NCBI GenBank assembly: GCA_964478485.1
Contig: CAYZJE010000017.1
Coordinates: forward strand, 6,065 to 70,064
Source: an uncultured Syntrophobacter sp.
GTDB lineage: Bacteria > Desulfobacterota > Binatia > UBA9968
Reading direction: 5' to 3'
DNA length: 64,000 nt
A program made the position numbers and the translations under genes. Below, piece by piece: positions 19,392 to 59,723 of the stretch. The notes under the pieces were generated by a model. That model was not told the DNA's origin. It saw nothing but the letters and a program-made list of their open reading frames with translations, and did not search any database. The stretch's first letter is position 1, and every line of letters begins with the position of its first letter.

Positions 19392-19503
19392 TGTTGACCA
19401 CGCTGATTCCAGCGTGGACCATTAAATGGGGTTTCCAAAGGGGGCGAGCATCCCCTTTGGTTAAGGGCGGGGTCAATACCCCGCCCGCGAAGTGCCTTCG
19501 TTT
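19392..19503 (-). repeat. copy A of a roughly 115-bp three-hairpin intergenic repeat (forward form on the minus strand)
   Basis: minus-strand reading ...GGCACTTCGCGGGCGGGGTATTGACCCCGCCC..CCAAAGGGGATGCTCGCCCCCTTTGGAAACCCCATTTAATGGTCCACGCTGGAATCAGCGTGGTCAACAA, near-identical to copies at 46956, 50265, 54753 and 59622. Confidence 0.85.
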
Positions 19504-19510
19504 AATTGAA

Positions 19511-20455
19511 TTATGGTGCGACGATTTCCACTTGCAGCGTGCCGATGCCTTCGACTTCGCCTTCGACCTTGTCGCCGGGATTCAAAAATACCGGCGGAGT
19601 GCGCGCGAAGCCGACGCCGGAAGGTGTTCCGGTGCTGATGATATCGCCGGGCTCAAGCGTCATGCCGCCGGATAGCGATTCGATAATCGTCGGGATGTCG
19701 AAGATCATGTCTCTGGTGTTGCCGTCCTGCATGACTTGGCCGTTCACCCGGCAGATGAGCCGCACCTGTTGCGGGTCGGGCATGGCGCTCTTGTGCACGA
19801 TCCACGGACCGAGCGGGCACAGGGTGTCGAGCGCTTTGCCTTTGAACCACTGGCCATGGATGCGCTGCAGCTCGCGGGCGGTCATGTCGAGACAGACCGT
19901 GTAGCCAAAGACATAATCATAGGCTTTGGCTTTCGGGATATCGCGGCCCTTTTTACCGATGATCACGGCGAGCTCGACTTCCCAGTCCAGTTTGTCGGTG
20001 ACTTTATGCTTGATGACCTTGCCGTTTTGGCCGATCACCGAAGTCGCCGGCTTGGTGAAAAATACCGGGTAGTCGGGATACTTGATCTCCAACTGGCGCG
20101 CCCGGGCGCCTTCGTCGACATGCTCGCGGTAGTTGATGCCGAGCATGACGCAGTTCTTTCTCGGTGTCGGAATCGGTGAGATGATTCTCGCCTGATTAGG
20201 TTTTACCAAGGCTGCGGCGGCGACCAATTTTTTCTGCTCATCGGAGTTTTTCCCGGCGACATATTTTTCCGCTTTGCGGGCGACTTGGATCGCCTTTGCA
20301 CCGGCTTCGATGAACGCCTGCATGCTGGCTAAGAACGGCGCGCTGCCGCCTTTAAGATAGCGCCGATTGACCTCGGCGAGATCGATGATCTGGTCCTGCG
20401 GCCCCATGAGGCCAAGGCGCTGTTGGTTCTTGCGGGTAAAAGTGACGAGTCTCAT
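19511..20455 (-). CDS. fumarylacetoacetate hydrolase (FAH) family protein
   Basis: C-terminal FAH-fold blocks (GDIISTGTPSGVG, metal-binding E/D pattern), 314 aa. Confidence 0.8.
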   Translation of the reverse strand: MRLVTFTRKNQQRLGLMGPQDQIIDLAEVNRRYLKGGSAPFLASMQAFIEAGAKAIQVARKAEKYVAGKNSDEQKKLVAAAALVKPNQARIISPIPTPRKNCVMLGINYREHVDEGARARQLEIKYPDYPVFFTKPATSVIGQNGKVIKHKVTDKLDWEVELAVIIGKKGRDIPKAKAYDYVFGYTVCLDMTARELQRIHGQWFKGKALDTLCPLGPWIVHKSAMPDPQQVRLICRVNGQVMQDGNTRDMIFDIPTIIESLSGGMTLEPGDIISTGTPSGVGFARTPPVFLNPGDKVEGEVEGIGTLQVEIVAP

Positions 20456-20483
20456 TATGCCTCCAAATCCAATAATTCAGCCT

Positions 20484-21479
20484 TTATATTCCGATACCTA
20501 AAAGCCGCTGCGCATTCGCATGGGAAATTGCTGCCAATTCATTAGCGCCGATCTTGGTCCGGTGCAATGACTGCACCGGCTCGGGATCGCCCATGTCATA
20601 GGGATAGTCGCTGCCCAAGAGCACTTTATCGGCGCCGAAGTTCGCGACCAAATATTCGAGCGCCATGGCGCTGTGCGTGATCGTGTCGAAGTGGAGCAGC
20701 TTGATGTACTCGCTCGGCGGCTTGGATATCCTTGACGTTGTCGAATCTTGAATTCGATAGCCGCGGTCGAGTCTGCCCCAAGTATAAGGCAAAAAACCGC
20801 CAGCATGGGCAACTAAGAATTTTAACCGGGGGTAGCGTTCGAGCACGCCGCCGAAGATCAGTTTGGCAAAGGCTAAGGAACTGTCGGTTGGGTTGCCGAT
20901 CAAATTGGCGAGATTGAAGTCTCTCATGCGATCGGCGCCGACCACCTGATTGGGATGCACGAAGATCAAGGCATCGAGCGCTTGCGCCGCTTCCCAGAAC
21001 GGCAGGAAGCCGGGATCGTCGAAATAGCGGCCGTTGATATTGCTGGCGACTTCGACGCCGCGTAGACCAAGTTTGGTCATCGCCCGTTCCATTTCCAGCA
21101 CGGCTTTGGCCGGCTCTTGCAGCGGCACCGAGCCGAGCGCCACGAATCGCTTTGGATGTTTAGCGACCGCTTCAGCCAGGCGGTCGTTGAGCCAGCGCGC
21201 GTACTCCAATGATTGCTCTGCCGGCATCCAATAGAAAAAATAGCTACTGGCGGGTGACAGCAGCTGCATGTCGACGCCTTGGGAATCCATGATCGACAAG
21301 CGCAGCTCGAGATCGGAAAATTCCGCCTTGGGCTGACTCAAGTATGGTTTGCCGTCGCGCGTGACGATGTCGCGACCGCGCTCGTTCTTGGCAAGCTTGA
21401 GGCCCTGGCGTTGGCCGATCTCGCTGGCGACTCGCAAGCTGTCGGCCGGGACGAAGTGGGCGTGGACGTCAACGTTCAT
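20484..21479 (-). CDS. amidohydrolase-2 family protein (ACMSD/LigW-type metal-dependent decarboxylase/hydratase family)
   Basis: N-terminal HAH motif MNVDVHAHFVP, conserved His/Asp pattern of PF04909 proteins, 331 aa. Confidence 0.75.
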   Translation of the reverse strand: MNVDVHAHFVPADSLRVASEIGQRQGLKLAKNERGRDIVTRDGKPYLSQPKAEFSDLELRLSIMDSQGVDMQLLSPASSYFFYWMPAEQSLEYARWLNDRLAEAVAKHPKRFVALGSVPLQEPAKAVLEMERAMTKLGLRGVEVASNINGRYFDDPGFLPFWEAAQALDALIFVHPNQVVGADRMRDFNLANLIGNPTDSSLAFAKLIFGGVLERYPRLKFLVAHAGGFLPYTWGRLDRGYRIQDSTTSRISKPPSEYIKLLHFDTITHSAMALEYLVANFGADKVLLGSDYPYDMGDPEPVQSLHRTKIGANELAAISHANAQRLLGIGI

Positions 21480-21638
21480 TTTGACATATCGGAATGAGGC
21501 TTCTGGGAGAGCTATCGGAGGGCTGGCGCAATGTCAAGCTCAACAGCACGCAAATGGCGACAGAACGCCTGGGCAAACCACTTCGATTGAACATGCATAA
21601 CCATTGCCTGGCGCAATGGGCGATGGTAGCTTGAGCCC

Positions 21639-21875
21639 ATGAACGGTAGGCGACCGAGAAAAGAAAACCGCGTGACCATGCGCGAAGGCGACCGGATTCT
21701 CATCAACAAGGGCATCTCGAAAAAAGTCATGATCATCGCCCGCACTGAAGTTCCCCATTCGATGGAAAGGATTTTCGTCACCAAGTCTGGCGGCAAGTAC
21801 ACGATCGGTTTAAAAGTGTGGAGGTCGGACTACGTCTGGAATGACAAAAACCAGATGTGGATGGCCAAACATTAG
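21639..21875 (+). CDS. small hypothetical protein
   Basis: ORF only; possible start at MREGDRIL. Confidence 0.3.
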   Translation: MNGRRPRKENRVTMREGDRILINKGISKKVMIIARTEVPHSMERIFVTKSGGKYTIGLKVWRSDYVWNDKNQMWMAKH

Positions 21876-21936
21876 TGAGCGAAGCTCGCAGCGGCTTGCC
21901 ATCGCGCCGCAGCGCTATTCCCATCCATAATACGCC

Positions 21937-23307
21937 GTGAAACGCGATTTCCCGACTGTTCTCGCCGAGCTCAAAAACGGCAAGGCGCCGCGCCTACTGC
22001 TGCTTTTCGGCGACGATCTCCAGGTTCAAGAAAGCTCCAAGAGGGTGCTCGATCTGGTCGTACCGGCGGATCAAAGAGGATTTAACTTCGAGCGTTTCGA
22101 CGGCCGGAGCGCGCCCTGGGACCAAATCGAGGCGTCGCTCATGACGCCGCCGTTCTTACCTGGGAAAAAACTTCTGTGGGTCGACAACGCGCCGTATTTC
22201 TTTTCGCGCGAGCAGAAAGGCGAGCTCGGCGAAAAGCTGCTCGAACTTTGGCGCGACGGCAAGCGCGACGACGCGGTGAAACTTTTGATCGACCTGCTCG
22301 TGCTCGAGGGCTGGACGCAAGAGCAATGGGACCGCCTTGAGCCGTCATCGGCAAAAGCGCTGTCGGCACTGCTCGACGCCGACGGCGGCGAAGCGCAAGA
22401 AGAAGTGGCGGCGCTACTTAGCTACTGCAAGAGCCGCGACGTTGATCTTTCTAAACGCAAAGGCTCCCAAGCGCATCGGCTGGCTACGTTGCTCGACGAA
22501 GGCTTACCCGAATGGGGATTCTTGTTGCTGACCGCGGTGCAGGTCGACCGGCGCACCCGGCTGTACAAGCGCTTCGAAGAGATCGGCGCGGTGCTTTATC
22601 TCGGTTTGGAACGGGACCGCAGCGGCAAGATCAGCCGGGAAAGCTTGCTCGAATTCGTTAACCAACGGCTCGGCCAGAGTGGCAAGAGCGTCGAGCCCCA
22701 AGCGCGCGAGATGATTCTCGCCCGCGCCGGCGATGAACTGCGCGGTTTGCAGCAAGAATTGGACAAGCTCGTGCTGTTCGTCGGCGAGCGGTCGGCGATT
22801 CGCGCCGGCGATGTCGAGATGATCTTCGCCGACCAGGGTGAAGGTTGGATCTTCGATCTCACCCGGGCGATCGGCGAGCGCGACGCGGCCGGCGCACTGG
22901 CGCAGTTGGCGCGGCTGCTGGCGCAGGGAGAACATCCGCTGCGCCTGTTAGGCACCGTCGCATCCGAGGTGCGCCACTTGTTATCGGCGCGCCAACTGCT
23001 GGAAACGGACTTCGCACGGGTCTGGAAACATGGCATGAGCTATCAACAGTTTCAGCAAACCGTCTTGCCCCAAGGCGCGCCGCTGCTCACCCGTAACCCC
23101 TACGCCGATTATATGTGCTTTCAACGGGCCGAGCGCTTTTCGCTCACTGATTTGCGCGCTTACATGGAGGGTATCTTCGACGCCGATTTCCGCTTGAAAT
23201 CGAGCGGCGGCCAAGCGCGCTTGGTGTTGGAGAAATTGCTCCTCGGCATGTGCCTCGGCGGACAAAAAGCCAAACAACCGAGCCCAGCGCGAGTTGGCCT
23301 ATCATGA
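21937..23307 (+). CDS. holA: DNA polymerase III delta subunit, long form with a roughly 100-aa insertion
   Basis: N-terminus LAELKNGKAPRLLLLFGDDLQVQESSKRVLDLV aligns with E. coli HolA LRAQLNEGLRAAYLLLGNDPLLLQESQDAVRQV; C-terminus SLTDLRAYMEGIFDADFRLKS aligns with SQTQLRQAVQLLTRTELTLKQ. Confidence 0.65.
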   Translation: MKRDFPTVLAELKNGKAPRLLLLFGDDLQVQESSKRVLDLVVPADQRGFNFERFDGRSAPWDQIEASLMTPPFLPGKKLLWVDNAPYFFSREQKGELGEKLLELWRDGKRDDAVKLLIDLLVLEGWTQEQWDRLEPSSAKALSALLDADGGEAQEEVAALLSYCKSRDVDLSKRKGSQAHRLATLLDEGLPEWGFLLLTAVQVDRRTRLYKRFEEIGAVLYLGLERDRSGKISRESLLEFVNQRLGQSGKSVEPQAREMILARAGDELRGLQQELDKLVLFVGERSAIRAGDVEMIFADQGEGWIFDLTRAIGERDAAGALAQLARLLAQGEHPLRLLGTVASEVRHLLSARQLLETDFARVWKHGMSYQQFQQTVLPQGAPLLTRNPYADYMCFQRAERFSLTDLRAYMEGIFDADFRLKSSGGQARLVLEKLLLGMCLGGQKAKQPSPARVGLS

Positions 23308-23837
23308 CGCGCGCGGCGGCGGTTTGCTTTCTATTTGCTATTCTCATCTCAGTGAATGGCAACGCCGAAATGGTCGTCCAGGCGTGTTTTAGTCCCCAGG
23401 GAAAATGTTCGGCGCATATCCGGCGCGAAATCGACCAGGCCAAGAAAGAACTATTGGTCGCCGTCTACGCTTTTACCAATGACGAGCTGGCGCAGGCATT
23501 GGTGCAGGCGAAAAAACGCGGCGTAACGGTGCAGGTGGTGATCGATCGCGAATTTGACGCCGGCAACGCTCGGTCGCAGGGCAAATTTTTCGAGGCGCAG
23601 AAAATCCCGCTGCGCCGACTGTCCGGGCATCGCTCAACGACGCAGGACAAAGAGGCCGGGCTGATGCACCAAAAATTCGCCGTCATCGACCGCCGCATTG
23701 TATTCACCGGCTCCTACAATTGGACCCACTCGGCGGACAGTTCAAACGATGAGAATTTGCTGCTCTTTCGTGACGCCGGGCCGCTGGCTGAGGAGTACCG
23801 CAAAGCCTTTCTCAATCTCTGGGAGCGCAAATCATGA
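23304..23837 (+). CDS. phospholipase D-family endonuclease (Nuc-like, single HKD motif), secreted; start taken at MTRAAAV
   Basis: HKD motif HQKFAVIDRRIVFTGSYNWT; signal peptide AAVCFLFAILISVNG; ATGA overlap with holA. Confidence 0.75.
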   Translation: MTRAAAVCFLFAILISVNGNAEMVVQACFSPQGKCSAHIRREIDQAKKELLVAVYAFTNDELAQALVQAKKRGVTVQVVIDREFDAGNARSQGKFFEAQKIPLRRLSGHRSTTQDKEAGLMHQKFAVIDRRIVFTGSYNWTHSADSSNDENLLLFRDAGPLAEEYRKAFLNLWERKS

Positions 23838-24373
23838 TCGGCCGCAGCGCGACCCTTATCGTTGCCGTTTTAGCCGCGTACATTGCCGGCTTGTTCACCC
23901 ATGTGCTTTATCAACGCTGGAACCCGCCACCGGCGGATATCGCCCTGTCGCTTGCCGTCGGACAAAGGCCGCCGTTATCCGACCTCCCAGGTAACCAAGG
24001 CCACCCGGTGCGGTTTGCCCTTTTGCCAGAGCCAGCGGCGGCGGAAAAAGCGCTCGATCTGCCCGTCATTGTCGCGCGCGACGTCGAAAAAATCCGTGCC
24101 CTTGCCGGCCGCCAAGCGCGCATTCGTGGCCGGGTGTTTCGCGTCGGCCACTCGGCGAAAAGCAACACATACTTTCTCAATTTCGGGCCATCGCGCGAGG
24201 CGCTCACCGCGGTGATCTTCGCGAGCAGTGTCGAGCTGTTTGAAAAGACCCGGCAGGCACCGAAAAATTTTGAAAACAAAGAAGTCGAAATGACCGGCCA
24301 AATAAAAGATCATCCCCAATACGGTTTGGAAATGGTTCTCGACAGCCCCGAACAAATAAAAATCTTGCCTTGA
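23834..24373 (+). CDS. hypothetical membrane-anchored protein
   Basis: N-terminal TM helix LIVAVLAAYIAGLFTHVLY; ATGA overlap with the upstream gene; no family recognised. Confidence 0.45.
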   Translation: MIGRSATLIVAVLAAYIAGLFTHVLYQRWNPPPADIALSLAVGQRPPLSDLPGNQGHPVRFALLPEPAAAEKALDLPVIVARDVEKIRALAGRQARIRGRVFRVGHSAKSNTYFLNFGPSREALTAVIFASSVELFEKTRQAPKNFENKEVEMTGQIKDHPQYGLEMVLDSPEQIKILP

Positions 24374-24403
24374 GTAATTGGCAAACGATTAGTTTTAAGT
24401 AGA

Positions 24404-24592
24404 ATGACACCTATGAGCGAGTCAGTGAAAAAATGTATGATCTGCGCCAAACCTATGGAACTGCTCAAGGGTGGCATCTGCGAGCCTTGTCAGGAGCGCA
24501 TTCGGCGCGAAGCGATGGGTGAGCAATCGGGGATCGCCGAGCGGGCCGAGCGAGAAATATCCCGTCACGGAATTGCGCCGACCAAGAAATAG
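24404..24592 (+). CDS. small zinc-ribbon protein (CxxC...CxxC)
   Basis: CMICAKP...CEPC pattern in a 62-aa ORF. Confidence 0.3.
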   Translation: MTPMSESVKKCMICAKPMELLKGGICEPCQERIRREAMGEQSGIAERAEREISRHGIAPTKK

Positions 24593-25990: not shown

Positions 25991-26005
25991 CGCGGCGCGC
26001 GCAGA

Positions 26006-28748: not shown

Positions 28749-28750
28749 TC

Positions 28751-41187: not shown

Positions 41188-41314
41188 TAAAGTATCACCC
41201 AAGATTTTTGGCGCACCCTATGGCAATGCCGGAATTTTTGCAATCGCCGCCGCGGCCCGTCCGACTCGGATGGTTCGGTTGACCGCCTCGGGCAAGATGG
41301 TAAAGTACCTGCCC

Positions 41315-42493
41315 ATGCCATTAGCGACTATTGAAGAAGCGATCGAAGACTACCGTCGCGGTAAATTGGTCATCCTGATGGATGACAAGGACCGCGAAAA
41401 CGAGGGTGATCTCTGCATGGCCGCCGAGAAGGCCACGCCGGCGGCGATCAATTTCATGGCGACCTATGGCCGTGGGCTGATTTGCCTGGCGTTAACCGAA
41501 GAGCGCGTCAAGCACCTGGGCCTAGCGATGATGGTATCCGACAATACTTCGCCCTTCGGCACGGCATTCACCGTCACCGTCGACGCCTCGGCGGGAATTA
41601 CCACCGGCATTTCCGCCGCCGACCGGGCCAAGACGATTCTTGACGCCATCGCCGACGATGCCAAGCCATCGGATCTGGTTTCGCCCGGCCATATTTTTCC
41701 ACTGCGCGCGCGCAACGGCGGCGTCCTGGTTCGCGCTGGCCAAACCGAAGGATCGGTGGACCTCGCGCGCCTCGCCGGGCTCAAGCCGGCCGGCGTGATC
41801 TGCGAGATCATGAAGGACGATGGCACCATGGCGCGCCAGCCTGACCTCATGCGCTTCGCCAAGAAGCATAAGCTCAAAGTGGTCACCAACGCCGATCTAA
41901 TTCAGCATCGCTTGAGCTATGACTCGCTGGTCTATAAAGCCGCGTCAGCGCCGCTGCCAACCCGCGTTGGCGGCGACTTCCAGGCCATCGTCTATAACAC
42001 CCACGTCGACAACAACGAGCATCTGGCGCTGATCAAAGGAAACATTTCAGCGAAGGAAGAAACCTTGGTGCGGGTGCACACCAAATACGTGCCCGGCGAT
42101 GTTTTTGGTTTCGAGCTGCTCAATACCGGCACGGTCATTCAGCGCTCCATGGAGATCATTGCCAAGGAAGGCAAAGGGGTCATTTTATATCTGCAGCCCA
42201 AGCAGAAGGCGCACCATCCCACCATGATGGCCTATCCGAAAGTCGACGGTAAACAGCAAAAGGCGATGAACCGTTCCTTTGTCTACCAGGCGGACTTCAA
42301 AGAGTACGGCATCGGCGCGCAGATCCTACGCGACCTCGGCGTGCGCAAGATGCGCTTGCTGACCAACAACAAAAAACATCTGGTCGGCCTGCGTGGCTAC
42401 GGCTTGGAAGTGACGTCGTTGGTGCCGATTCCGAGAGAGAATCCAATCCGTGAAGTGCCCAAGCAGACCAAAGCGAAAGCCAAGCGCGCCTAG
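41315..42493 (+). CDS. ribB: 3,4-dihydroxy-2-butanone 4-phosphate synthase fused to a GTP cyclohydrolase II-like domain that lacks the three zinc-binding cysteines
   Basis: RibB N-terminus [18 protein letters not shown]; C-terminal half aligns with RibA but HSECLTGD...RCDCG is replaced by HTKYVPGD...LLNTG. Confidence 0.8.
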
Positions 42494-42502
42494 CCCTGCG
42501 GG

Positions 42503-42600
42503 ATAGCGAATCTCAGATTTCAAATTTCAGATTCCACAATTCGGATCGGTAATTTGATATATGGAATATGGAATTTGTAATCTGAGATTCCGAGCGAAGC
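42503..42600. repeat. AT-rich inverted-repeat element built from CAGATTY/CAAATTT heptamers
   Basis: GAATCTCAGATTTCAAATTTCAGATTCC ...(35 nt)... GGAATTTGTAATCTGAGATTC; related motifs at 27366-27400 and 63787-64000. Confidence 0.6.
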
Positions 42601-46935: not shown

Positions 46936-46955
46936 CACACTCCCTTTCTGATTTG

Positions 46956-47078
46956 TCGTCGACCACGCTGATTTTAGCGTGGAACCCGTAACTGGGATTT
47001 CCAAAGGGGGCGGGCATCCCCTTTGCGATATTAAAATTGGCGCCGGGGTCAATACCCCGGCCGCGAAGTGGCTTCGTT
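46956..47078 (-). repeat. copy B of the three-hairpin intergenic repeat (forward form on the minus strand)
   Basis: contains CCACGCTGATTTTAGCGTGG, CCAAAGGGGGCGGGCATCCCCTTTG and GGCGCCGGGGTCAATACCCCGGCCGCGAAGTGGCTTCG. Confidence 0.85.
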
Positions 47079-47081
47079 GAT

Positions 47082-48473
47082 TTATCGAATGATGCCGCGG
47101 TACTCGAGCGGCATTTGCTGTTTCTCGGTCGCCGCGTTGGGCACGTGGGCCGGTAGTGGCACATTGCTCACGGGGACTTGCGAACGCCCTCGGTTGCCGG
47201 TTCCTTCTTTGGTCGCTTTGCTTTCCCCTTTGCCATCCGCCGCAACCTCTTCCGGCAACTGCACGGTGACATAGCGCGCGCCTTTGAGGCCATCCTTGCC
47301 CTCGCCCGCCTGGTAGAAACGCTCCGCTGGCGGCGCGCCCTGCGGCGGTTCTTCCGACGCTTGGTTTTTACCACCGCCTTCCTTCGAACCGCCTTGGCCC
47401 TTACCTCCCCCATCCTTATTTGGTTCCTTGCCCGGCCGGTTCGGGTCGGCTTGATTTCCCTTGGCGTCACCTTGGTGCTGTTGATTCTTGTCTTGGCCCG
47501 GCTCCTTCGGATTTCCCCCCGCTGACTTGCCTTGCCCCATGTCCTTGCTCAATTGTGCGCTCATTTTTTCCTGGCCGTCGCCTCCGCTGCCTTGACTCTG
47601 CTTGCCTTCGCCTTGACCCTCTTGGGGCAAGTTGCTCTGGAGATTGCCACCGCCCTGGGATTGATTTTTTTGCTGCTCCTGTCCGCTCGCTGACTGTTGT
47701 TGCTCTGCTCCCTTCAACTCATCGGCCGCTTGACTGAGCAGATCGCGATTCTTACTTTCATGCTCTTTTTTTTGCAGCTCTTTGGTTTTTTGCTCGAGCT
47801 CTTGCACTGCCGCCTGTTTTTCTTCCGGATGAATTTTTGCATCCTCTAGCTTCGCGGCGAGGGTTTTTAACTGCTCGGCTAGTTCTTTTAGCCGCGGTGC
47901 CTGCGCCATTTTTTCCGCTAACTCACGCAGCCGTTGGGAAGCCAGCACTGGATGTAACATGGCACCAGCGGGCGGTAAGAGAAAATACAGCAGCAGCACC
48001 GCAAACAGCGAACTCCCTGCCGACCAGTACATAGGAGTTTTCACCCTATAGGGAAAATCGCGCTTGAGCTCGACTCGGCCGACCAGGTCCCCTGCGTCCT
48101 GGCGTAGCCGGGAAAGCAATGGCTCGGCGCAACTTTCCGGATCGATGGTCGCCAAAGTAAGAAAATGATCCTTCGCACCAGCGCGTTGGTCGACGAGTTG
48201 CGCCGCTTGAGGCAAATTAGGAATCCGCTTGCGGTGGCGCAGCGTGACCGCAAGCGAGCCAAGGCCAATTGCTATCACAGCGATCGCTGAGGCGATCATC
48301 GGACTAACCCAAACGCCTTGCGCTAGGAAGTAAGCGGCGCAGAGCGACGCCAAAACCGGTGGAACGAATATCAGTAAAGCATCCCAAAGGGAGTGATCGC
48401 CGAGCCGGGCCCTTAACCTAAGGACCACGGCTTCAGGCCGTGTGCGCGCTTCAAGGTGGGACGATAACGCCAT
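47082..48473 (-). CDS. membrane protein with N-terminal TM helices, a coiled coil and a long G/Q/K/E-rich disordered tail
   Basis: hydrophobic segments near the N-terminus; low-complexity GQEQQKNQSQGGG...KGQGGSKEGGGKNQ region; immediately upstream of MoxR. Confidence 0.5.
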   Translation of the reverse strand: MALSSHLEARTRPEAVVLRLRARLGDHSLWDALLIFVPPVLASLCAAYFLAQGVWVSPMIASAIAVIAIGLGSLAVTLRHRKRIPNLPQAAQLVDQRAGAKDHFLTLATIDPESCAEPLLSRLRQDAGDLVGRVELKRDFPYRVKTPMYWSAGSSLFAVLLLYFLLPPAGAMLHPVLASQRLRELAEKMAQAPRLKELAEQLKTLAAKLEDAKIHPEEKQAAVQELEQKTKELQKKEHESKNRDLLSQAADELKGAEQQQSASGQEQQKNQSQGGGNLQSNLPQEGQGEGKQSQGSGGDGQEKMSAQLSKDMGQGKSAGGNPKEPGQDKNQQHQGDAKGNQADPNRPGKEPNKDGGGKGQGGSKEGGGKNQASEEPPQGAPPAERFYQAGEGKDGLKGARYVTVQLPEEVAADGKGESKATKEGTGNRGRSQVPVSNVPLPAHVPNAATEKQQMPLEYRGIIR

Positions 48474-48519
48474 AAGCGAAAATATAACACGTCGGCAGAG
48501 CGGCTTAAACGTAAGCGGG

Positions 48520-49554
48520 TCAGTGTCGCGCGGCGACTTTCCTCGGAGTTTGAGAGTTTTGCCGGACCGGCTGATAGGTTTTTACCGCACGGTTGTGCGC
48601 CTCGATGGTTTCGGAAAATAGATGAGTGCCATCGTTTTTCGATACGAAGTAAAGATACGGCACGTTGGCCGGCTGTAGCGCTGCTTTGATCGACGCAACA
48701 CTCGGGTTGCAGATCGGCCCCGGCGGCAGAGCAGCGATCCGATAGGTGTTATAGGGATTGGCATCCAGCAAATCTTTGCGCGTCAAATTACCGTTGAAAT
48801 CCTTGATGCCGTAAATCGCCGTCGGGTCGCTTTGCAGCGGCATTTGTTGCTTGAGTCGGTTGTGAAAGACGGCGGAGACTAACGCGCGCTCTTCCTGAAC
48901 ACCGGTCTCTTTTTCAATGATCGACGCCAGTGTCAGGATCTCGTGGGAAGTCAGCCTTATACTGTTCGGTCGTTGCGCCAAGACCGGCTGCGACACTTTA
49001 CGAAACTGTTCGGCCATGGCGATGATGATGTCTTTTTCGGCGGTCGCCGGCGTGAAATGGTAGGTGCTCGGAAACAGATAACCTTCGAGGCCTTTGCCTT
49101 GCAGGCCGAAATTTGCCAGCAAACTCGGCTTGGCCGCTTCCGTGACAAACTTCTCCTGATCGGCGATCTGCATCTTGTCCAGCAAGACGGCGATCTCTTT
49201 GACGGTCAAGCCTTCGGGAATGGTCACGCTGTGGAAGACACCCTTGCCAGTAATCAATCTTTCCAAAACTTCCCGTGGCGCCACGCCGCTATCGAAACGG
49301 TAGAGGCCTTGATGGATGCGCTTCTCCGCGCCCCGGACCCGCGCCCACAACGAAAAGAACCAGCCATTGGTGATAACCTTCTGCTCGCGCAGTTTACGAG
49401 TCACGGAGGCCAAGGAGTCACCCGGCTCCACCCGCACCTCAGCCGGAACCGGCCCGATGACGGGAATGGAATAATTAATGTCGTAAAATAGCAAACCGGC
49501 AGCAACCGCAACGGCAGTGGCAATACTAGCGAGGCTGCGAAATAGAGTTGTCAC
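48520..49554 (-). CDS. mltG: endolytic murein transglycosylase MltG (YceG family)
   Basis: N-terminal TM anchor, YceG blocks GLYRFDSG, TIPEGLTVKEIA, ASIIEKETG, conserved Glu. Confidence 0.8.
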   Translation of the reverse strand: MTTLFRSLASIATAVAVAAGLLFYDINYSIPVIGPVPAEVRVEPGDSLASVTRKLREQKVITNGWFFSLWARVRGAEKRIHQGLYRFDSGVAPREVLERLITGKGVFHSVTIPEGLTVKEIAVLLDKMQIADQEKFVTEAAKPSLLANFGLQGKGLEGYLFPSTYHFTPATAEKDIIIAMAEQFRKVSQPVLAQRPNSIRLTSHEILTLASIIEKETGVQEERALVSAVFHNRLKQQMPLQSDPTAIYGIKDFNGNLTRKDLLDANPYNTYRIAALPPGPICNPSVASIKAALQPANVPYLYFVSKNDGTHLFSETIEAHNRAVKTYQPVRQNSQTPRKVAARH

Positions 49555-49603
49555 GATTGGATGTTGGAAGCTTCTGTGAATCTGAAGATTAATCTGCGCG
49601 CAA

Positions 49604-50173
49604 TTAATTTTCCGTCAGATTAACCTTCATCCAGCCTTCTATTTGCCGCAAGAATCCGGCAAATGGATCTTCGCCCGGCGCGGTGGCGAAACAGGCCTTG
49701 CGCAGGTAATCAAGCGCGCCGGAGTAGTATTCGAATTTACTCGCGAGCTCCTGAAACAGAAAATAGCCGGTGCGGTAGAGCGACAGATCGAGCTCGGAGA
49801 CCGTCCAATAGGAGCGGCTTCCTTCTTGAAGGTAATAATCGAGAGAGCCTCTGCCCTCGACATGTTGGCGGAAAATGCCGCTCATGAACAGCGCGTAATC
49901 GCCGACATATTTTCGCCGCGAGCGCTCTCGCAGCACATCGCTTTCATCGGCCAACGTTGGCGACTCCTGGGTGAGCATTTCCACCACGCTATCCACCTTG
50001 CGGCCGTTGCGCGCGCGCACTTTGTAGAGATTTTCCGAACGGGCAAAGTCGGTTAAAACATCGGCGACATATCTCGCAACCGTCGCGTCGTGGATCCCCA
50101 ATTGCCAAAAGCTCTGGCGCACCGACTGGTGAAAAAAGCCGCGTAATTGATTATCCGCTACTTGAATTTCCAT
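49604..50173 (-). CDS. hypothetical protein
   Basis: 189-aa ORF; no family recognised. Confidence 0.4.
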   Translation of the reverse strand: MEIQVADNQLRGFFHQSVRQSFWQLGIHDATVARYVADVLTDFARSENLYKVRARNGRKVDSVVEMLTQESPTLADESDVLRERSRRKYVGDYALFMSGIFRQHVEGRGSLDYYLQEGSRSYWTVSELDLSLYRTGYFLFQELASKFEYYSGALDYLRKACFATAPGEDPFAGFLRQIEGWMKVNLTEN

Positions 50174-50264
50174 AAGCGTAGACCCATGATACCAAGTTTG
50201 CGATTTTGTGAAAAGATATGTTTTTGTGTCGGCGCGGAATGGCTGTTTCCGCGGTCAATTAACG

Positions 50265-50418
50265 TAGCCACTTCGCGGCCGGGGTATTAACCCCGACGCC
50301 AATTAAATTATCGCAAAGGGGATGTTCAACCTCCTTTGGAAACCCCATTTAATGGTTCCACGCTGAAATCAGCGTGATCAACAATAAGTGGTTCCAGGCT
50401 ACAAGCAGCGTAGTCAAC
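50265..50418 (+). repeat. copy C of the three-hairpin intergenic repeat, with the third hairpin module tandemly duplicated
   Basis: GCCACTTCGCGGCCGGGGTATTAACCCCGACGCC..CAAAGGGGATGTTCAACCTCCTTTGGAAACCCCATTTAATGGTTCCACGCTGAAATCAGCGTGATCAACAA plus a second GGTTCCAGGCTACAAGCAGCGTAGTCAAC. Confidence 0.85.
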
Positions 50419-50510
50419 CTAAATTAACTAACACTGGCGTATTTTGCCACCAGGGTTATAATAGCGGAAATTTGGTAGCGTGATGGAATATGAGCTGAGC
50501 GGAGGAAAGC

Positions 50511-54703: not shown

Positions 54704-54752
54704 TTCGCTTTCTCTTACGTCCGACTTGATTCTCTAATCAACAATATAAACG

Positions 54753-54863
54753 CAGCCACTTTGCGGGCGGGGGTATTAACCCCGCTCTTAACCAAAGGGG
54801 ATGCTCGCCCCCTTTGGAAACCCCATTCAAAGGTTTCACGCTGCAAGCAGCGTGATCAAGCTC
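54753..54863 (+). repeat. copy D of the three-hairpin intergenic repeat
   Basis: GCCACTTTGCGGGCGGGGGTATTAACCCCGCTC..CAAAGGGGATGCTCGCCCCCTTTGGAAACCCCATTCAAAGGTTTCACGCTGCAAGCAGCGTGATCAAGC. Confidence 0.85.
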
Positions 54864-54869
54864 GATTTC

Positions 54870-55658
54870 TCAGCCACGCGGCGACGGTTTGCCAATATGA
54901 ATATGCGCGCCAGTGGCCGCACCTGGCACGGCATTTCTAAAGGCGATAAATGGTATCCCTGTCTGGCGCAAGTAACTTAACAAGCTCTGTCCTTCTCTGC
55001 TGTCGGGATGAAGCGCCACATCGATCGCATTGCGATGATCGAAGCGCAATCGATCGTGCGTTGCGGTCTGGCCGAAAGCGCTGATCGGCATCGCCCGGCC
55101 AAAGGTCTGGGCAAAGAAACTTTCGATCTTCGATGAATCGACCAGCGACCAAGCTGCGCCGCCGTTAAAACGCAGCAGTGTATTTGATTCGCTATAGCCA
55201 CCGATGGAGAGGGTTGGCAGCCTTAGCAATTCGTCGCGCATGCTATATTCCGTCAGCGCCATGTCGGTTTCTGCCAGCCAGCGCTTGTCCTCATCCACGC
55301 GAAGTATCGCCTCCGCCAAAGCACTTTCCGCTTGCAGCACTTCGTTGCGCGCAATCAGTCCCGTATAGTACTGCTCGCGCCTTTGTTCATAGAGCTCGGT
55401 GGCACGCAACCGCTCGGTTTCATGTAGCGCGAGTAATTTTTCCGCACCGGCGCGGGTTTCTTTGATTTTTTGGATGACATCGGCGCGTACGCGGGTCAAT
55501 TCCGAATCGCTCGCTACGGTTCGACGGCTAGACGGAGCCTTGCGACTTTCCTGCGGGTAGCCGGGTTGACGGAAAAAGAGGAGCAGCGAGACGCAGCTAA
55601 GAACCCCAGCGCTCACGATCGCTGTCATGCAGCGATATTGCCACGGTCGAGAGAACAT
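54870..55658 (-). CDS. membrane-anchored coiled-coil protein with C-terminal domain carrying an M15/LAS-like HxxxAxD...HxH motif; tandem paralog of 55721-56479
   Basis: N-terminal TM helix, coiled-coil middle, conserved C-terminus RFNGGAAWS...FAQTFGR..P..A.GQ..THDRLRFDHRNAIDVALHPDS...GAHIHIG shared with the neighbour. Confidence 0.5.
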   Translation of the reverse strand: MFSRPWQYRCMTAIVSAGVLSCVSLLLFFRQPGYPQESRKAPSSRRTVASDSELTRVRADVIQKIKETRAGAEKLLALHETERLRATELYEQRREQYYTGLIARNEVLQAESALAEAILRVDEDKRWLAETDMALTEYSMRDELLRLPTLSIGGYSESNTLLRFNGGAAWSLVDSSKIESFFAQTFGRAMPISAFGQTATHDRLRFDHRNAIDVALHPDSREGQSLLSYLRQTGIPFIAFRNAVPGAATGAHIHIGKPSPRG

Positions 55659-55720
55659 TTTAAAAAGTTTAGGAATTTAGCCGTGCCGGGTCAAGCCATT
55701 AGTTCCGTAAAGGTTGAATT

Positions 55721-56479
55721 CTAGCGCCCGAGTCGGGCTGAAGGTCTACCGATATGAATATGCGGGCCGGTGGCGGTGCCGGGAACCGCTTGTCTGAACG
55801 CCAGGAACGGGATACCCGACCTGCGCAGGTAATCGATCAAGGTCCGGCCTTCGGCGCTGTCCGGGTGAAGCCCAATGTCGATGGACTCGCGATGATCGAA
55901 GCCGAGGCGGTTGTGCGTGTGCGACTGACCCAGGGCCGTGACGGGAAGGCTGCGGCCAAAAGTTTGCGCGAAAAATTTTTCGATTCGTGGAGCTTCTTTG
56001 ATCGACCACTTGAAGCCGCCGTTGAAACGGGTAAGCTCAGCGGTTTGCGTGAAACCGCCCACCGGTAGCACCGGCATGCGCAGAACCTTCTCACCCAGGA
56101 TCGCTTCAGTAATCGCGATATCAGCCTCGGTTACCGTATGGCGCAACTCATGTACGCGCTTGAGCGCGGCGACGAATAACTGTTCAGCTGCGACGACCTG
56201 AGCCTTGTCAATTTGTCCATCCTGAAATGACTTACGCAGCCTGATCACTTCAGTCCTGAGAGTGGCTTGATCTCTTTCGTAAACCATCAACAAACGACGG
56301 TCTTCGGCCAGCGATTTCTGCAAATCTTCCGCGGCGATAGGAGCCGTGCCGTCGCTCACCGAGGTTCTAATGCCAGCGCGCGGGTTCCAACCGTTGATCG
56401 CAAAATACACCATCACCAGCAGCGGCGGCATCACCGCGGCCATGAGCACCAGCCGGGATTTCAGAGCTTCTGCGACCAT
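55721..56479 (-). CDS. membrane-anchored coiled-coil protein, tandem paralog of 54870-55658
   Basis: same architecture; C-terminus THNRLGFDHRESIDIGLHPDS...GPHIHIG. Confidence 0.5.
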   Translation of the reverse strand: MVAEALKSRLVLMAAVMPPLLVMVYFAINGWNPRAGIRTSVSDGTAPIAAEDLQKSLAEDRRLLMVYERDQATLRTEVIRLRKSFQDGQIDKAQVVAAEQLFVAALKRVHELRHTVTEADIAITEAILGEKVLRMPVLPVGGFTQTAELTRFNGGFKWSIKEAPRIEKFFAQTFGRSLPVTALGQSHTHNRLGFDHRESIDIGLHPDSAEGRTLIDYLRRSGIPFLAFRQAVPGTATGPHIHIGRPSARLGR

Positions 56480-57057
56480 GAAACCGAAAGTCTACGGGCT
56501 TAGGGCAGAACGGTCAAGCTAAATTGCCCGTATCATCGGCCGGTGTTACGGGCAAATTTCCGAATCCTGCAATTTACCGGTCTGCGTCGTTTGTCAGATC
56601 TACAGCGCAAAGGCCATACCAGTTTCGCGTTTGACTGGTGATAGTGAGTTAAGCTGTTGTAGTAACGACAGAAAGATTATCGGCTCGGTTTGGCTAAGAT
56701 GATCGCCAATGAAAACTTAGCCCGGATTATTCACGCCAGGCCGCGATCGAGGTGCAACCCTTCCGGAACGAAGGCAATGGAGTTGTGCCTTGAAGAGGCA
56801 AGCGGGGCAAGTCATCTCTGAAATCACCCGTGGGAAGTTCAAGCATCGTGCCGAGCGCCGAGAATACGGTGAAACATTTGCGCTGGTGCCTTCGCTCCTC
56901 CAGGGTCGCACCTCGATTGCCACAGTGTAGTGAGTTTCCCTCGTAGCATGAGTAATCCGGGTTAGGTGTAGCAAGTTCGCTACACCCTGTAGTCGTTTTG
57001 CTACTCGAAAAGGGGGCGACGAGCAAACCGACGCGAGCTAGGTTTGCTTCTGGATTT

Positions 57058-57270
57058 GTTGCCGAAGCTAAACCAGCGCTCGCAGCTGGGATACCAATTT
57101 CTCCGCTTCGTCAAACCCCTTCTGCCAAAATTGCGCTTCGTGAATGTTCACACCGAGCGGTTCGAGCAGCTCCTCAGGTGGAGCTGATCCGCCGGCTTCT
57201 AGCAGCGCGAGATATTTTGGCACGAAGCTTTTTGCCTTGGTCTTTGCACATACGATAAAGCGCGAGGACC
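57058..57270 (-). pseudogene. remnant of an M3B oligoendopeptidase F (pepF) gene, C-terminal roughly 60 codons only
   Basis: minus-strand translation ...TKAKSFVPKYLALLEAGGSAPPEELLEPLGVNIHEAQFWQKGFDEAEKLVSQLRALV* matches the conserved PepF C-terminus (KYLELLSAGGS..P.ELL...GVD...FWQ...); no upstream body or start. Confidence 0.5.
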
Positions 57271-57319
57271 AAGAGCGGGCCGAGGACGTAGCTGTGGCAT
57301 TAGAAACGGTAGTAAATTT

Positions 57320-57580
57320 TCACACTCTAGGCCAGAACAGATTTAGGTACTCGATTTCATCTCGATCGGTAACGCGGTAATGAACTAGGATAGTACGGGA
57401 CCGGTAAAGGTAACTTGGGGAAGTCGGATTGTAAAAACTCGGAACTCTACCGGGTAAATCGGGGTTTCGAACGATTGCGGCCAATGTTTCTTCGAGATTG
57501 GTTAGATCGCCAGCACTAACTGATTTTTCGAAGACTGAAAGTTCCTCAAGAAATTTTTTTGAGAGAAGGTAGTGAGTCAC
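57320..57580 (-). CDS. RelE/ParE-superfamily toxin of a type II TA pair (start taken at GTG, VTHYLL...)
   Basis: about 87 aa, immediately downstream of and overlapping a Phd/YefM antitoxin gene; C-terminus RTILVHYRVTDRDEIEYLNLF fits the RelE/ParE pattern. Confidence 0.5.
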   Translation of the reverse strand: MTHYLLSKKFLEELSVFEKSVSAGDLTNLEETLAAIVRNPDLPGRVPSFYNPTSPSYLYRSRTILVHYRVTDRDEIEYLNLFWPRV

Positions 57581-57875
57581 GAAGGAGCCCTTTTTTCCGA
57601 GCCGCGGACAGGATTCTTTGGACCGTTGGTGCACCTGAAAGTTTGAGCACTTTCCCGGTTTTCACGTCATCCAACGATTTGCGCATGGCCCGCAACGCTT
57701 CCGGGTCTTGCCATAGTCGAGCGACAGCCTTCAAAGTTTGCAGATGCTCAAAGTTGACAATCACAGCTTTCGGTTTTCCTTGCTTTGTGACGATTACTTG
57801 ATCGCCATCTTCGACTTCCTCGACCAGGCGGAGGAATTTTTGTCTAGCTTCGCTTGTGGTTATGTAGCGGTCCAT
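57546..57875 (-). CDS. Phd/YefM-family type II antitoxin
   Basis: N-terminus MDRYITTSEARQKFLRLVEEVEDGDQVIVTKQGKPKAVIV typical of Phd/YefM. Confidence 0.75.
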   Translation of the reverse strand: MDRYITTSEARQKFLRLVEEVEDGDQVIVTKQGKPKAVIVNFEHLQTLKAVARLWQDPEALRAMRKSLDDVKTGKVLKLSGAPTVQRILSAARKKGLLRDSLPSLKKIS

Positions 57876-58119
57876 AGATTACCTCACTGACAAAGAAGTG
57901 TACAAAGAGATGCGACCATGAGCAAGGCTAGCGGTTGCGTCAATTGCTACGAGGGCTGAGTTTCGAGCGATAGCTTTTTGCGCCATGAGCGCTCCTTTCG
58001 ATTGTTTGTGATGCTGCTTATTTCACGGTGATCCAGGCTGGTGTCAAGTTGCGCCGCAGCGATTTCAGTGTATATGATGGCCGGAATTTTTCTGGAACAA
58101 TCAAGGAGGAAAAGTTTTT

Positions 58120-58830
58120 ATGGCCGAATTAACTGAACTCAAAAAGATTCTAGCGATGTCGTCGCGCATGCTCTTTAACTCTGGGCTGGTCGATTACAGC
58201 GGGCATATCAGTGTGCGCATTCCGGGTTCCGATCACTTGCTGATCCTGCCGCACCCCGTGAGCCGGGCGACCGTCAAACCAGACGACATGGTGGTGACCG
58301 ATTTCGAAGGCAAAGTGATCGAAGGGAAGTACAGAGCGCCCTCGGAAGTGTACATGCATGCGCGCGCCTACAAAGCGCGCAGCGACGTGCATAGCGTGGC
58401 GCATCTGCATAATCACATGGTGGCGACGCTCAGCATGGTCAACAAGCCTTTTTACCCGGCGTCTTCGAATCCGGGAGCGTTCTTTGGACCGGGCGCGCTG
58501 CCGCTCTACATGGACCCGGCATTGATTCACACGATCGAACAAGGCGATGCCGTGGCCAAGACACTGGGCCAAGCCGATGCCGTCATGTTGCGCGGTCACG
58601 GGTCGATGGTCGTGGCGCAATCGATCGAATGGGTGTTTGCCGCCTGCGTTGACTTGGAAGAAGCCGCATCGCGTTTCTACAAAGCATCGCTGCTCGGACC
58701 CGTGATGGTTTACAACGACGATGAAACCCAGCGGGTCATGAAAGGGCGGCGCAAGGATTCCGTTGTCCAGAAAGTTTGGGATCACAACGTTGCCAAAACC
58801 AAACTGGCCGGTCTAATGGATGGAATTTAG
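58120..58830 (+). CDS. class II aldolase/adducin family protein
   Basis: class II aldolase blocks (GHISVR, YMHARAYKARSDVHSVAHLHN, RGHGSMVVAQS); second member of this family in the window. Confidence 0.8.
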   Translation: MAELTELKKILAMSSRMLFNSGLVDYSGHISVRIPGSDHLLILPHPVSRATVKPDDMVVTDFEGKVIEGKYRAPSEVYMHARAYKARSDVHSVAHLHNHMVATLSMVNKPFYPASSNPGAFFGPGALPLYMDPALIHTIEQGDAVAKTLGQADAVMLRGHGSMVVAQSIEWVFAACVDLEEAASRFYKASLLGPVMVYNDDETQRVMKGRRKDSVVQKVWDHNVAKTKLAGLMDGI

Positions 58831-58880
58831 CGATTTTTCCGAAGTGGCCGGCTAGCATTCACGGGACAGACCTTCGAAGT

Positions 58881-59034
58881 GATTCTGCTGAAAAACCCTG
58901 CGTTCATCCTTCGAGAGCCTCAGAGCCCGTCCTGAGCTTGACGAAGGAACGAACGGGGAGGGGATTGATAACATTAAGAATTTTCCGTTCATGCTGAGCC
59001 CGTCGAAGCATTCCTAGGGGTTTTTCAGCAGATT
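58881..59034. mobile_element. MITE-like element: 17/18-bp terminal inverted repeats, roughly 7-bp flanking direct repeat, highly structured interior
   Basis: left TIR GATTCTGCTGAAAAACCC (58881-58898), right TIR GGGTTTTTCAGCAGATTC (59017-59034); flanking CGAAGTG / CGAAGTGG on both sides; internal repeats GTTCATCCTTCG...CGAAGGAACGAAC. Confidence 0.45.
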
Positions 59035-59243
59035 CCGAAGTGGCGGCGGTAGCGGCTTGGGCGCGCGTCGAATTCGCAGCGTCCGAGCCTAGCCCTTTTC
59101 ATCCAAGGCCGGATTGGCTTGGCCCAAGATCGTCAATGATGACGAGATTCACCAATATCTATAAGTTGGGGATTTTTTTCTTGCGTGGTACTAGGCCCTG
59201 TGGTATAGAATCCGACTTAAGTTGACGAGGAGATTGTACTCAA

Positions 59244-59615
59244 ATGTACGATGATTTCTTAGCAAGGATTCTAGAACCGGATATTTTTCTACCCTCGCAG
59301 TTTTACGGCTCGGGCGGGCTGTCGCGCAGGCTTGAGGGCGAAAAGCGGCTGATGATCGCGATACTCAAGGACGCGGTCGAGTGTTTGGAAAAATATCGCG
59401 ACGCGAGCAATGGACTAGGCCGCATCCAGTATCAAAACGCCATCGAATGGGTCGAGGATACCGGCACGGAATGGCTGTTTTCGTTCACTAACATCTGCGA
59501 TTTGTTGGGATTCGATCCGCATTATATGCGTGAAGTGCTGCTCAAACGAGAGAACCGATACATCAAGCCAGCGCGCACCCGAACGGTTTCCTTCGCCGCG
59601 ATGATGGCGCAATAA
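59244..59615 (+). CDS. conserved hypothetical protein; paralog of 40212-40667
   Basis: see 40212-40667; 123 aa. Confidence 0.5.
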   Translation: MYDDFLARILEPDIFLPSQFYGSGGLSRRLEGEKRLMIAILKDAVECLEKYRDASNGLGRIQYQNAIEWVEDTGTEWLFSFTNICDLLGFDPHYMREVLLKRENRYIKPARTRTVSFAAMMAQ

Positions 59616-59621
59616 TAATCG

Positions 59622-59723
59622 CAGACACTTCGCGGACGGGGCGTTGACCCCGTAGTTGACCAAAGGGGATGCTCGCCCCCTTTGGAAACCCCATTTAACG
59701 GTTCCCCGCTGCGACCAGCGGGG
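59622..59723 (+). repeat. copy E of the three-hairpin intergenic repeat, with a variant third hairpin
   Basis: CAGACACTTCGCGGACGGGGCGTTGACCCCGTAG..CAAAGGGGATGCTCGCCCCCTTTGGAAACCCCATTTAACGGTTCCCCGCTGCGACCAGCGGGG. Confidence 0.85.

Follow-up and report, generated by a model that had tools for sequence, protein, structure and literature searches.

The stretch of DNA analyzed in this work (64 kb of contig CAYZJE010000017.1 from an uncultured Syntrophobacter sp., referred to as the window) carries five full copies, A to E, of a hairpin-rich intergenic repeat that is 115-135 bp and typically about 125 bp long. The copies are spaced 4-27 kb apart in both orientations (two on the minus strand, three on the plus strand) among unrelated housekeeping genes encoding a fumarylacetoacetate (FAA) hydrolase, a Memo-like protein, MoxR, a LeuA-dimer-domain protein, a NUDIX protein and an M48 peptidase. 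All five, at the positions and in the orientations reported in a preliminary description of this DNA, have been recovered by reading of the sequence, by an independent mechanical repeat detection, with a covariance model and with a profile hidden Markov model (HMM; nhmmer --max, E up to 50), the full copies scoring 107-138 bits. Besides these, the two models matched nothing across the 64 kb except an extra 3′ module at 50383-50428. A 39-nt core pattern gave three matches in the window at up to three mismatches versus none in 100 shuffles. The copies, their surroundings and the hairpins of copy A (P0 to P3) are the following.

19383-19512, minus strand: copy A, full element (138 bits), between the gene of the FAA hydrolase family (stop codon 19511-19513) and the Memo-like gene (ATG 19373-19375), co-oriented with both.
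19488-19500, minus strand: hairpin P0 of copy A, CGAAG-GCA-CTTCG.
19465-19486, minus strand: hairpin P1 of copy A, GGGCGGGG-TATTGA-CCCCGCCC, with a stem that covaries between sub-families.
19421-19460, minus strand: hairpin P2 of copy A and its conserved single-stranded tail, CCAAAGGGG-ATGCTCGC-CCCCTTTGG, tail AAACCCCATTTAAT, the near-invariant module.
19386-19417, minus strand: hairpin P3 of copy A and its A-rich tail, CCACGCTG-GAAT-CAGCGTGG, tail TCAACAACAAAC.
46947-47089, minus strand: copy B, full element with a 10-nt linker insertion, between the gene of a 463-amino-acid Q/K/E-rich protein, whose stop codon overlaps the 5′ end of the copy, and a MoxR ATPase gene.
50252-50387, plus strand: copy C, full element, likewise containing the linker insertion, between divergent genes.
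50383-50428, plus strand: extra 3′ module on copy C (second P3 and tail).
54740-54868, plus strand: copy D, full element, antisense between two minus-strand genes, its 3′ end abutting the stop codon of the gene 54870-55658.
59610-59739, plus strand: copy E, full element, between convergent genes.

The hairpins follow one another in the same order in all five copies: P0 (CGAAG-NNN-CTTCG), P1 (GGSCGGGG-TATTRA-CCCCGSCC), P2 (CCAAAGGGG-ATGYYCR-CCCCTTTGG, then AAACCCCATTTAA with the conserved tail core AAACCCCA) and P3 (CCACGCTG-NNNN-CAGCGTGG, then the A-rich tail TCAACAACAAAT), in agreement with the modules and palindromes described before. Pairwise identity among the copies is 81-92% over aligned columns and 74-86% with gaps counted, lower than the 85-95% originally given; 10 nt are inserted between modules 1 and 2 of both copy B and copy C. 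The predicted hairpins form in the fold of each copy (z = -3.0 to -6.0 versus shuffles), and the complementary strand folds about equally well. The substitutions in copy E, reported earlier to preserve pairing, do so: two double changes set it apart from its sub-family, G-C to A-U in P1 and A-U to C-G in P3. The second P3 module of copy C is also present as described; the orthologues of this copy in two relatives (loci L074 and L078; loci outside the window are given L numbers) have a single P3, which corresponds to the second module of the window copy and not to the first.

A scan with the P2 core, one genome per species, has identified at least 72 stretches from 13 metagenome-assembled genomes (MAGs), about 0.47 Mb, in which an HMM built from these stretches found at least about 95 copies. 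Among the matches listed, nearly all come from MAGs labelled Deltaproteobacteria, Syntrophobacter sp. SbD2, Thermodesulfobacteriota, Candidatus Binatia, Fibrobacterota and Spirochaetota, and the fragmented MAG JAERMN01 alone gives dozens of stretches. MAG JAUYJC01 (L054) is syntenic with the window at 34.4-38.5 kb with 72-82% identity, which places the window organism in the group labelled 'Deltaproteobacteria'; as an empty-site comparison this locus was discarded as uninformative, since its synteny breaks exactly at the element. No named family has been matched in Rfam 15: none reached its gathering score on any window copy, nothing better than E = 2.5 was found around copy A, and none was matched at E up to 1 by six loci that represent the other sub-families. 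The literature searched with the core sequence and with descriptions of such a repeat gave nothing specific, and the plasmid and phage collections contained no match to the element, a single viral-contig match being rejected as a chance one that lies inside an open reading frame (ORF) without the flanking modules.

The sub-families have P2 and its tail in common and differ in the stems of P1 and P3. For P3 the versions CACGCTG/CAGCGTG, CCCGCCTC/GAGGCGGG, CCCGCAGC/GCTGCGGG and CCCCCACT/AGTGGGGG have been found, and P1 is represented by GGCCGGGG, GGGCGGGG, GGCGGTGG or a 12-bp TCGCGAGCGGGG helix. P0 is found in sub-families 1 and 2; elsewhere the conserved TTCGCG stretch that P0 otherwise uses is paired in a longer P1, as in the 12-bp helix. 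The type of P1, the linker length, the type of P2 loop and the type of P3 combine in many ways, that is, the modules have been reassorted. They have also been lost or isolated: P3 is absent from the copies in L077, L024 and L064, and fragments consisting of the 3′ module alone occur at 50383-50428 of the window and at L074:17947-17988. Tandem head-to-tail copies (L067:4789-4920 and 4918-5024) and a close convergent pair (L031:2768-2871 and 2935-3081) suggest that copies have been inserted beside or inside earlier ones, or have been duplicated locally.

The structure was specified by hand and checked by pair counts on an alignment of 81 sequences, RNAalifold on the raw alignment having missed P3 owing to the placement of gaps. 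In this structure 90.7-91.5% of the cells are paired, 13-14 pairs change on both sides and 144-145 cells are compensatory; these values were reached by 0-5 of 500 shuffles, and the paired share fell to 36-64% when the 3′ partner was slid by 1-3 columns. The covariation is concentrated in two pairs of P1 (columns 34/56 and 35/55, 25 sequences each changed on both sides) and two pairs of P3 (columns 140/147 and 141/146, changed on both sides in 39 and 29 sequences, respectively), and it mostly separates sub-families. That base pairing is important in P1 and P3 is shown by their compensatory differences. P2 behaves in another way: 99.2% of its cells are paired with almost no variation, and its arms make up a perfect inverted repeat of 8-9 bp. 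Where copies were located by synteny and not by the scan pattern, P2 has this same single version, broken only by uncompensated point changes. A small peptide that could be read in P2 (ATG CTC GCC CCC TTT GGA AAC CCC ATT TAA) has been considered and rejected, because the P2 loop varies in length by one base between sub-families, which shifts the reading frame; in addition, a G-run abuts its ATG. The single short ORF of the unit does not keep its frame, for the reason of loop length just given.

The P2 hairpin is not confined to the three-hairpin element. Another repeat, about 92 bp long and located in the Desulfovibrio sp. MAG JAVBOI01 (L005:33-124, L005:1171-1221 and L061:5221-5312), has only the P2 hairpin and the GGAAACCCCATTT tail in common with the window element; its neighbours are PolA, RDD-family, SpoIIM and DUF3300 genes, with no mobile-element genes among them. 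The frozen state of P2 and its presence in the Desulfovibrio repeat suggest that P2 may be read sequence-specifically by some trans-acting factor.

Evidence on the nature of the element comes from the comparison of filled and empty sites. A metagenome scan with the 463-amino-acid protein encoded between copies B and C has provided 35 syntenic loci, five of them with 84-90% nucleotide identity to the window. L074, L075, L076 and L078, with flanks 84-90% identical to those of the window, lack copy B at the base-pair level; the empty site reads ...TTCGATGA|CGAGAAAGG... and the window has 131 extra bases there. In L077 (about 75% identity) the same site is occupied by a P3-less copy, the insertion of which splits the TGA stop codon, and the AA of a new TAA comes from the element. 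A block of 190 bp with copy C (50229-50418) is absent in L075, L076 and L080 and present in a decayed form in L074 and L078. Conversely, copies are found where the window is empty (L078:12680-12823, 14116-14251 and 19450-19587; L074:484-623), and the first of them lies in the 5′ (signal-peptide) end of a cytochrome-c-like ORF which is intact in L074 and whose ATG reads ATT in L078; this gene is probably disrupted in L078. These filled and empty sites in close relatives mean that the insertions are polymorphic. About 237 kb of syntenic DNA from relatives at or below 58% protein identity contained no copy. Gain and loss at such a rate, together with the patchy distribution, is the signature of a mobile element.

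The earlier caution that the copies might be an assembly artefact is answered by the same data: the copies differ in sequence and have unique flanks, and relatives assembled independently have copies C and D at the same positions. The repeat does interfere with assembly in another way. A Logan contig (SRR9952630_231702, 3247 bp; L073) is 99.97% identical to 47100-50242 of the window and has both its ends inside copies B and C, from which it follows that the repeat fragments short-read assemblies of the window organism.

Several minor observations on the window may be added. A separate hairpin, CGCGGAATGGCTGTTTCCGCG, is situated at about 50236-50256, just 5′ of copy C and inside the 190-bp block missing in L075, L076 and L080; the indel at copy C is thus larger than the element itself. 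The gene at 47082-48473 (minus strand), which encodes the 463-amino-acid Q/K/E-rich protein, has no Pfam match for its product and a strong local AT skew (-0.245); the protein is kept at 47-83% identity in the 35 metagenome loci, and its neighbours include YceG- and MoxR-type genes. The cumulative GC skew of the window has a minimum at about 14000-16000, where its sign turns from negative to positive, and all five copies are located on the positive-skew side; the turn could be a replication origin or a rearrangement boundary.

Taken together, the element is probably a non-autonomous, non-coding mobile DNA repeat of about 125 bp, of the REP/BOX/YPAL kind, which has multiplied from a small number of source versions. 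Although it corresponds to none of the catalogued families, it is selfish DNA of a familiar kind, and nothing points to a new type of gene or regulator. The source versions would have been copied into A/T-rich intergenic spots, often right at a stop codon, and the hairpins would be recognized, during copying or movement, by an enzyme supplied in trans, P2 serving as the sequence-specific handle and P1 and P3 as structural elements close to either end. Any influence on neighbouring genes, for example through a stop codon supplied or structure added to a 3′ untranslated region (UTR), would be a by-product.

Terminal inverted repeats are lacking in the element: inverted-repeat detection reports internal hairpins only, and the 5′ end AAACGAAGCCACTTCG... 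has at most a CCAC core in common with the reverse complement of the 3′ end ATTTGTTGTTGACCACGC.... The conserved part sets in sharply, 3 nt ahead of AAACG, and begins with AWT (A in 39/44 copies, A/T in 43/44 and T in 41/44), while position -4 and those beyond it are variable; about 90% of the copies have AWT in front of the 5′ end, either as target or as part of the element, and every sub-family ends with AAT or ATT after the A-rich tail. In the cleanest filled/empty pair the empty site has a single AATCAA and the filled site one at each end, and flanking repeats of 6-9 nt accompany some copies. The AWT left flank and the AAT 3′ end could stand for a 2-3 bp duplication or for a target preference; the data as a whole allow either a duplication of 2-6 bp or insertion beside a preferred A/T-rich word without duplication.

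The preliminary description saw no fixed relation of the copies to gene ends, and this view has to be corrected. In the window a stop codon lies within about 10 nt of four of the five copies (next to the 5′ end of A, B and E and the 3′ end of D), and across all loci 26 of 93 copies (about 28%) lie within 10 nt of a flanking stop codon. Such proximity is in line with a preference for TAA/AAT-like words, which cluster at gene ends in a genome of 56% G+C, and also with the harmlessness of such sites.

Among the known repeat families, YPAL/RU-2 and CIR are the closest to the window element in behaviour, by their described traits. YPAL of Yersinia has no TA termini, is not A+T-rich, contains internal inverted repeats and is flanked by duplications of variable length (3-26 bp), its mobility having been inferred from filled and empty sites; CIR of Caulobacter/Brucella is devoid of terminal inverted repeats and consists of 5′ and 3′ sections with separate folds (Delihas 2008, PMC2229807). 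The lack of terminal inverted repeats, the internal inverted repeats and the filled and empty sites all recur in the window element, and a variable duplication may do so. The hosts of these families are unrelated to the present ones, the central hairpin of the window element is invariant and present in the repeat of another lineage, and the element inserts at A/T-rich sites (AWT, AATCAA) and not beside dyad symmetries.

In architecture the closest family is BOX of Streptococcus pneumoniae (boxA-boxB-boxC), with its fixed order of modules, a variable number of one of them (copy C has two P3, the copies in L077, L024 and L064 none), about a hundred or more intergenic copies and stable predicted folds; no mobilizing enzyme of BOX is known. 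The likeness is architectural only: the terminal modules of BOX are mutually complementary, whereas the two ends of the window element are not, and the host belongs to a different phylum. BOX is mentioned briefly in PMC10969869.

The REP/BIME/REPIN sequences of E. coli, Pseudomonas and Stenotrophomonas, mobilized by RAYT (Y1 HUH) transposases, resemble the element as high-copy extragenic G+C-rich hairpins without terminal inverted repeats, forming module mosaics, polymorphic in presence and absence and frequently placed just after stop codons. According to PMC3733652, REPs are single palindromes of 20-40 bp with a GTAG or CGTC tag at one end, usually arranged as inverted pairs. The window element, in contrast, has 3-4 different hairpins in fixed order per unit of about 125 bp, and the consensus of 81 copies contains none of GTAG, CTAC, CGTC and GACG, which places it outside REP/REPIN. 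The classical MITEs (Correia/NEMIS, ERIC, RUP) have in common with it the small size, lack of coding capacity, multiple intergenic copies, strongly folded transcripts and insertion polymorphism seen as filled and empty sites, but they possess terminal inverted repeats of 7-24 bp, TA termini and TA duplications (PMC2229807), all of which are lacking here. The REP/MITE-type assignment made in the preliminary description therefore stands in the broad sense of a dispersed, non-coding, structured repeat that is mobile, as the insertion polymorphism indicates; strict membership does not, for want of terminal inverted repeats, a tag and a robust duplication.

Elements derived from IS200/IS605 (PATEs) are similar in having no terminal inverted repeats, hairpins near both ends and near-clean empty sites, and the AWT 5′ and AAT 3′ boundaries may also fit, insertion in that family taking place, without a duplication, 3′ of a fixed tetra- or pentanucleotide. 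In the IS200/IS605 family the two end hairpins resemble each other, whereas P1 and P3 of the window element do not. Single-strand transposition of the HUH/Y1 type, as for REP/RAYT and IS200/IS605-derived elements, would be the most compatible chemistry, because terminal inverted repeats and a robust duplication are lacking, hairpins lie near both ends, and AWT and AAT mark the 5′ and 3′ boundaries; such a mobilization step is proposed only tentatively, and we regard it as doubtful.

A number of observations weigh against the mobile-repeat interpretation or against this chemistry. No Y1-transposase-like ORF was found by phmmer among 5,485 ORFs in 0.87 Mb of the DNA analyzed, a search of limited sensitivity made with IS200 TnpA and RAYT probes, and the only multi-copy proteins near the copies are dehydrogenases, ABC ATPases and solute-binding proteins. 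The mixed orientation of the five window copies reveals no simple replication-strand bias of the IS200/IS605 type. The own versus foreign flank test gave a mean longest match of 5.23 versus 5.02 (p = 0.075, not significant), so that the search for target-site duplications, marked earlier as a check on the repeat, has yielded one clean case and no general rule. Filled and empty sites of copy B differ by a few extra bases, hence insertion or excision is not perfectly clean, and the window and the more distant L077 have a copy at this site while four closer relatives have none, which requires that a copy was lost or that the site was hit twice. Part of the invariance of P2 among MAGs comes from the scan pattern itself. 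Finally, the two private compensatory changes of copy E are the sole hint toward selection on individual copies; copy E may descend from an unsampled source.

Within the same 0.87 Mb no TnpA or TnpB and no parent element combining tnpA/tnpB with the same end hairpins were seen. Two further candidates for a mobilizing unit have been rejected: the gene between the copy pair in L046, considered as the cargo of a composite transposon, looks like an ordinary multi-pass membrane transporter, and the ORFs adjoining the truncated copies in L024 and L064, examined as remnants of a parent element, are ordinary.

The interpretation to be weighed first against a mobile repeat is a functional RNA module, either a small-RNA family or, more plausibly, a part of the neighbouring mRNAs, with mobility merely spreading the module. 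In the mRNA variant the hairpins would stabilize or destabilize transcripts, or an RNA-binding protein would attach to P2, which has two GGA motifs and a C-rich tail. The stable folds of every copy, the compensatory changes in P1 and P3 and the many copies in 3′ UTR positions directly after stop codons fit such a role, as does the invariance of P2 and its tail even in the unrelated Desulfovibrio repeat, a kind of conservation more usual for binding sites than for simple hairpins; ERIC and Correia elements provide a precedent for effects at the mRNA level (PMC2229807). The fate of individual copies nevertheless speaks against it in three tests of selection, all of them negative. As to orientation, among about 90 copies with crude gene calls, those between co-directional genes are antisense in 27 cases and sense in 17 (18 further copies are in divergent and 8 in convergent regions), thus the sense orientation is not preferred. 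As to the type of single mismatch in the helices, G-U and A-C are equally frequent (30 versus 31 overall; 8/8 in the P1 core, 17/22 in P3 and 5/1 in P2), which means that neither strand is favoured, unlike in a protected RNA, and both strands fold equally well. As to divergence, copy D is 86% (L074) and 70% (L078) identical to its orthologues between flanks of 82-90% identity, and copy C 71% and 58% between flanks of 84-91%, its orthologues having lost 12 nt of P2 and tail; these alignments show orthologous copies diverging at least as fast as their flanks, with a decay at about the neutral rate.

No promoter-like or terminator-like site tied to the copies has been found and no Rfam family matches, and several hundred small-RNA genes per genome would be implausible; the small-RNA alternative offered in the preliminary description is not supported. 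The conserved secondary structure claimed there is upheld by the compensatory changes in P1 and P3, but the covariation lies mostly between sub-families, that is, between source elements and not within copies, so the status of each copy as a functional RNA is not demonstrated by it. Because selection on individual copies is not seen and no promoter or terminator is tied to them, the compensatory pattern is taken to reflect the needs of the source elements for copying and not a role at each locus. We consider the RNA interpretation unlikely.

Returning to the mobile repeat, the contrast between P2 and the other hairpins permits a bolder proposal, to which we give a similarly small chance: P2 with its tail (CCAAAGGGG-loop-CCCCTTTGG-AAACCCCA) might be a sequence-specific handle for one conserved trans-acting protein, built into different repeats of several lineages, namely the three-hairpin element of MAGs with the labels Deltaproteobacteria, Binatia and Fibrobacterota, and the repeat of about 92 bp in the Desulfovibrio MAG. 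The protein reading P2 could be an unrecognized mobilizing enzyme, DNA- or RNA-based, or a global RNA-binding protein. If this proposal is true, the family marks a new and widespread element-enzyme system and not one more lineage-specific repeat.

The perfect 8-9 bp inverted repeat of fixed sequence in P2 could also be the site of a dimer, and the copies would then be BIME-like binding sites of a host factor at the DNA level (a nucleoid protein, gyrase, an IHF-type protein or a recombination/replication signal), kept by selection for chromosome organization. A density of one copy per 5-13 kb in the window and its relatives and the modular mosaic build, which resembles BIMEs, agree with this possibility. 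It is made improbable by the gain, loss and decay of copies between close relatives, P2 being destroyed in some of them, by the next-closest relatives, which are devoid of the family in the same syntenic region, and by the lack of any tie of the copies to a chromosomal landmark.

A SINE-like retro-element, the transcript of which would be turned back into DNA by a reverse transcriptase recognizing P2 or P3 and inserted by target priming at A/T-rich sites, is still less probable. It would account for the A-rich 3′ tails (CAACAACAAAT, ACATAGAAT), for the A/T-rich insertion sites, for the direct repeats of variable length (5-9 nt) flanking some copies and for the fragments that keep the 3′ module only (50383-50428 in the window, L074:17947-17988), yet copies truncated at the 3′ end are about as common as those truncated at the 5′ end, the flanking repeats are not significantly copy-specific, and a reverse transcriptase was not seen. 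The P1 of some sub-families recalls a tRNA minihelix, having a 12-bp helix and a T-loop-like UUCGAA loop with ACCA after it; the likeness is limited to these sub-families, and the CCA is paired inside P2. The resemblance is therefore given as a side remark, the only tRNA-like Rfam match, mascRNA-menRNA, being insignificant (14.5 bits, E = 2.8). To our knowledge, there is no precedent for a bacterial SINE-like retro-element.

Integron attC sites or another site-specific recombination target, which the size of about 115-135 bp, the imperfect palindromes and the intergenic position superficially recall (chromosomal attC sites such as VCRs), are hardly credible and, like an assembly artefact, are refuted by the gene context and the orthologous copies: there is no single-orientation cassette array, the copies being dispersed in both orientations among ordinary housekeeping genes, and no RYYYAAC/GTTRRRY core pair is visible at the ends of the inspected consensus, while an artefact would not be expected to differ in sequence and recur at orthologous sites of independent assemblies.

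The consequences of a mobile repeat of this kind are mainly genomic. There are perhaps hundreds of copies per genome, and the repeat breaks short-read assemblies of an abundant uncultured soil/sediment lineage. It reshapes intergenic and occasionally coding DNA, with stop codons replaced and an ORF interrupted, and its insertion pattern is a ready marker of strain-level variation. On present evidence the repeat reveals neither a new regulatory RNA nor a genetic system of a new kind; the distinctive feature of the element is one invariant hairpin placed between two covarying ones and held in common with another repeat. One frozen hairpin versus two covarying ones constitutes a natural experiment on what the copying machinery reads, and this contrast makes the mobilizing enzyme a tractable target.

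Other structured features of the window are unrelated to the repeat or of a different type. A TPP riboswitch is present at 18325-18433 (minus strand), upstream of minus-strand genes (73.4 bits versus a gathering score of 54.3), and a tRNA gene at 16241-16313 (minus strand; 71.4 bits); both are unrelated to the repeat. A borderline Rfam match to the Vibrio antisense RNA AS9 (50.6 bits versus gathering 50) is located at 41414-41515 (minus strand), inside and antisense to the ORF 41270-42493, and may simply reflect conserved coding sequence. Long A/T-rich inverted repeats composed of GAAAT/CGAAAT-like units are found at 63822-63983 (arms of 41 nt, 85% complementary, 80 nt apart) and 42508-42590 (29 nt, 90%, 25 nt apart), and these may represent a second, unrelated class of intergenic hairpin.

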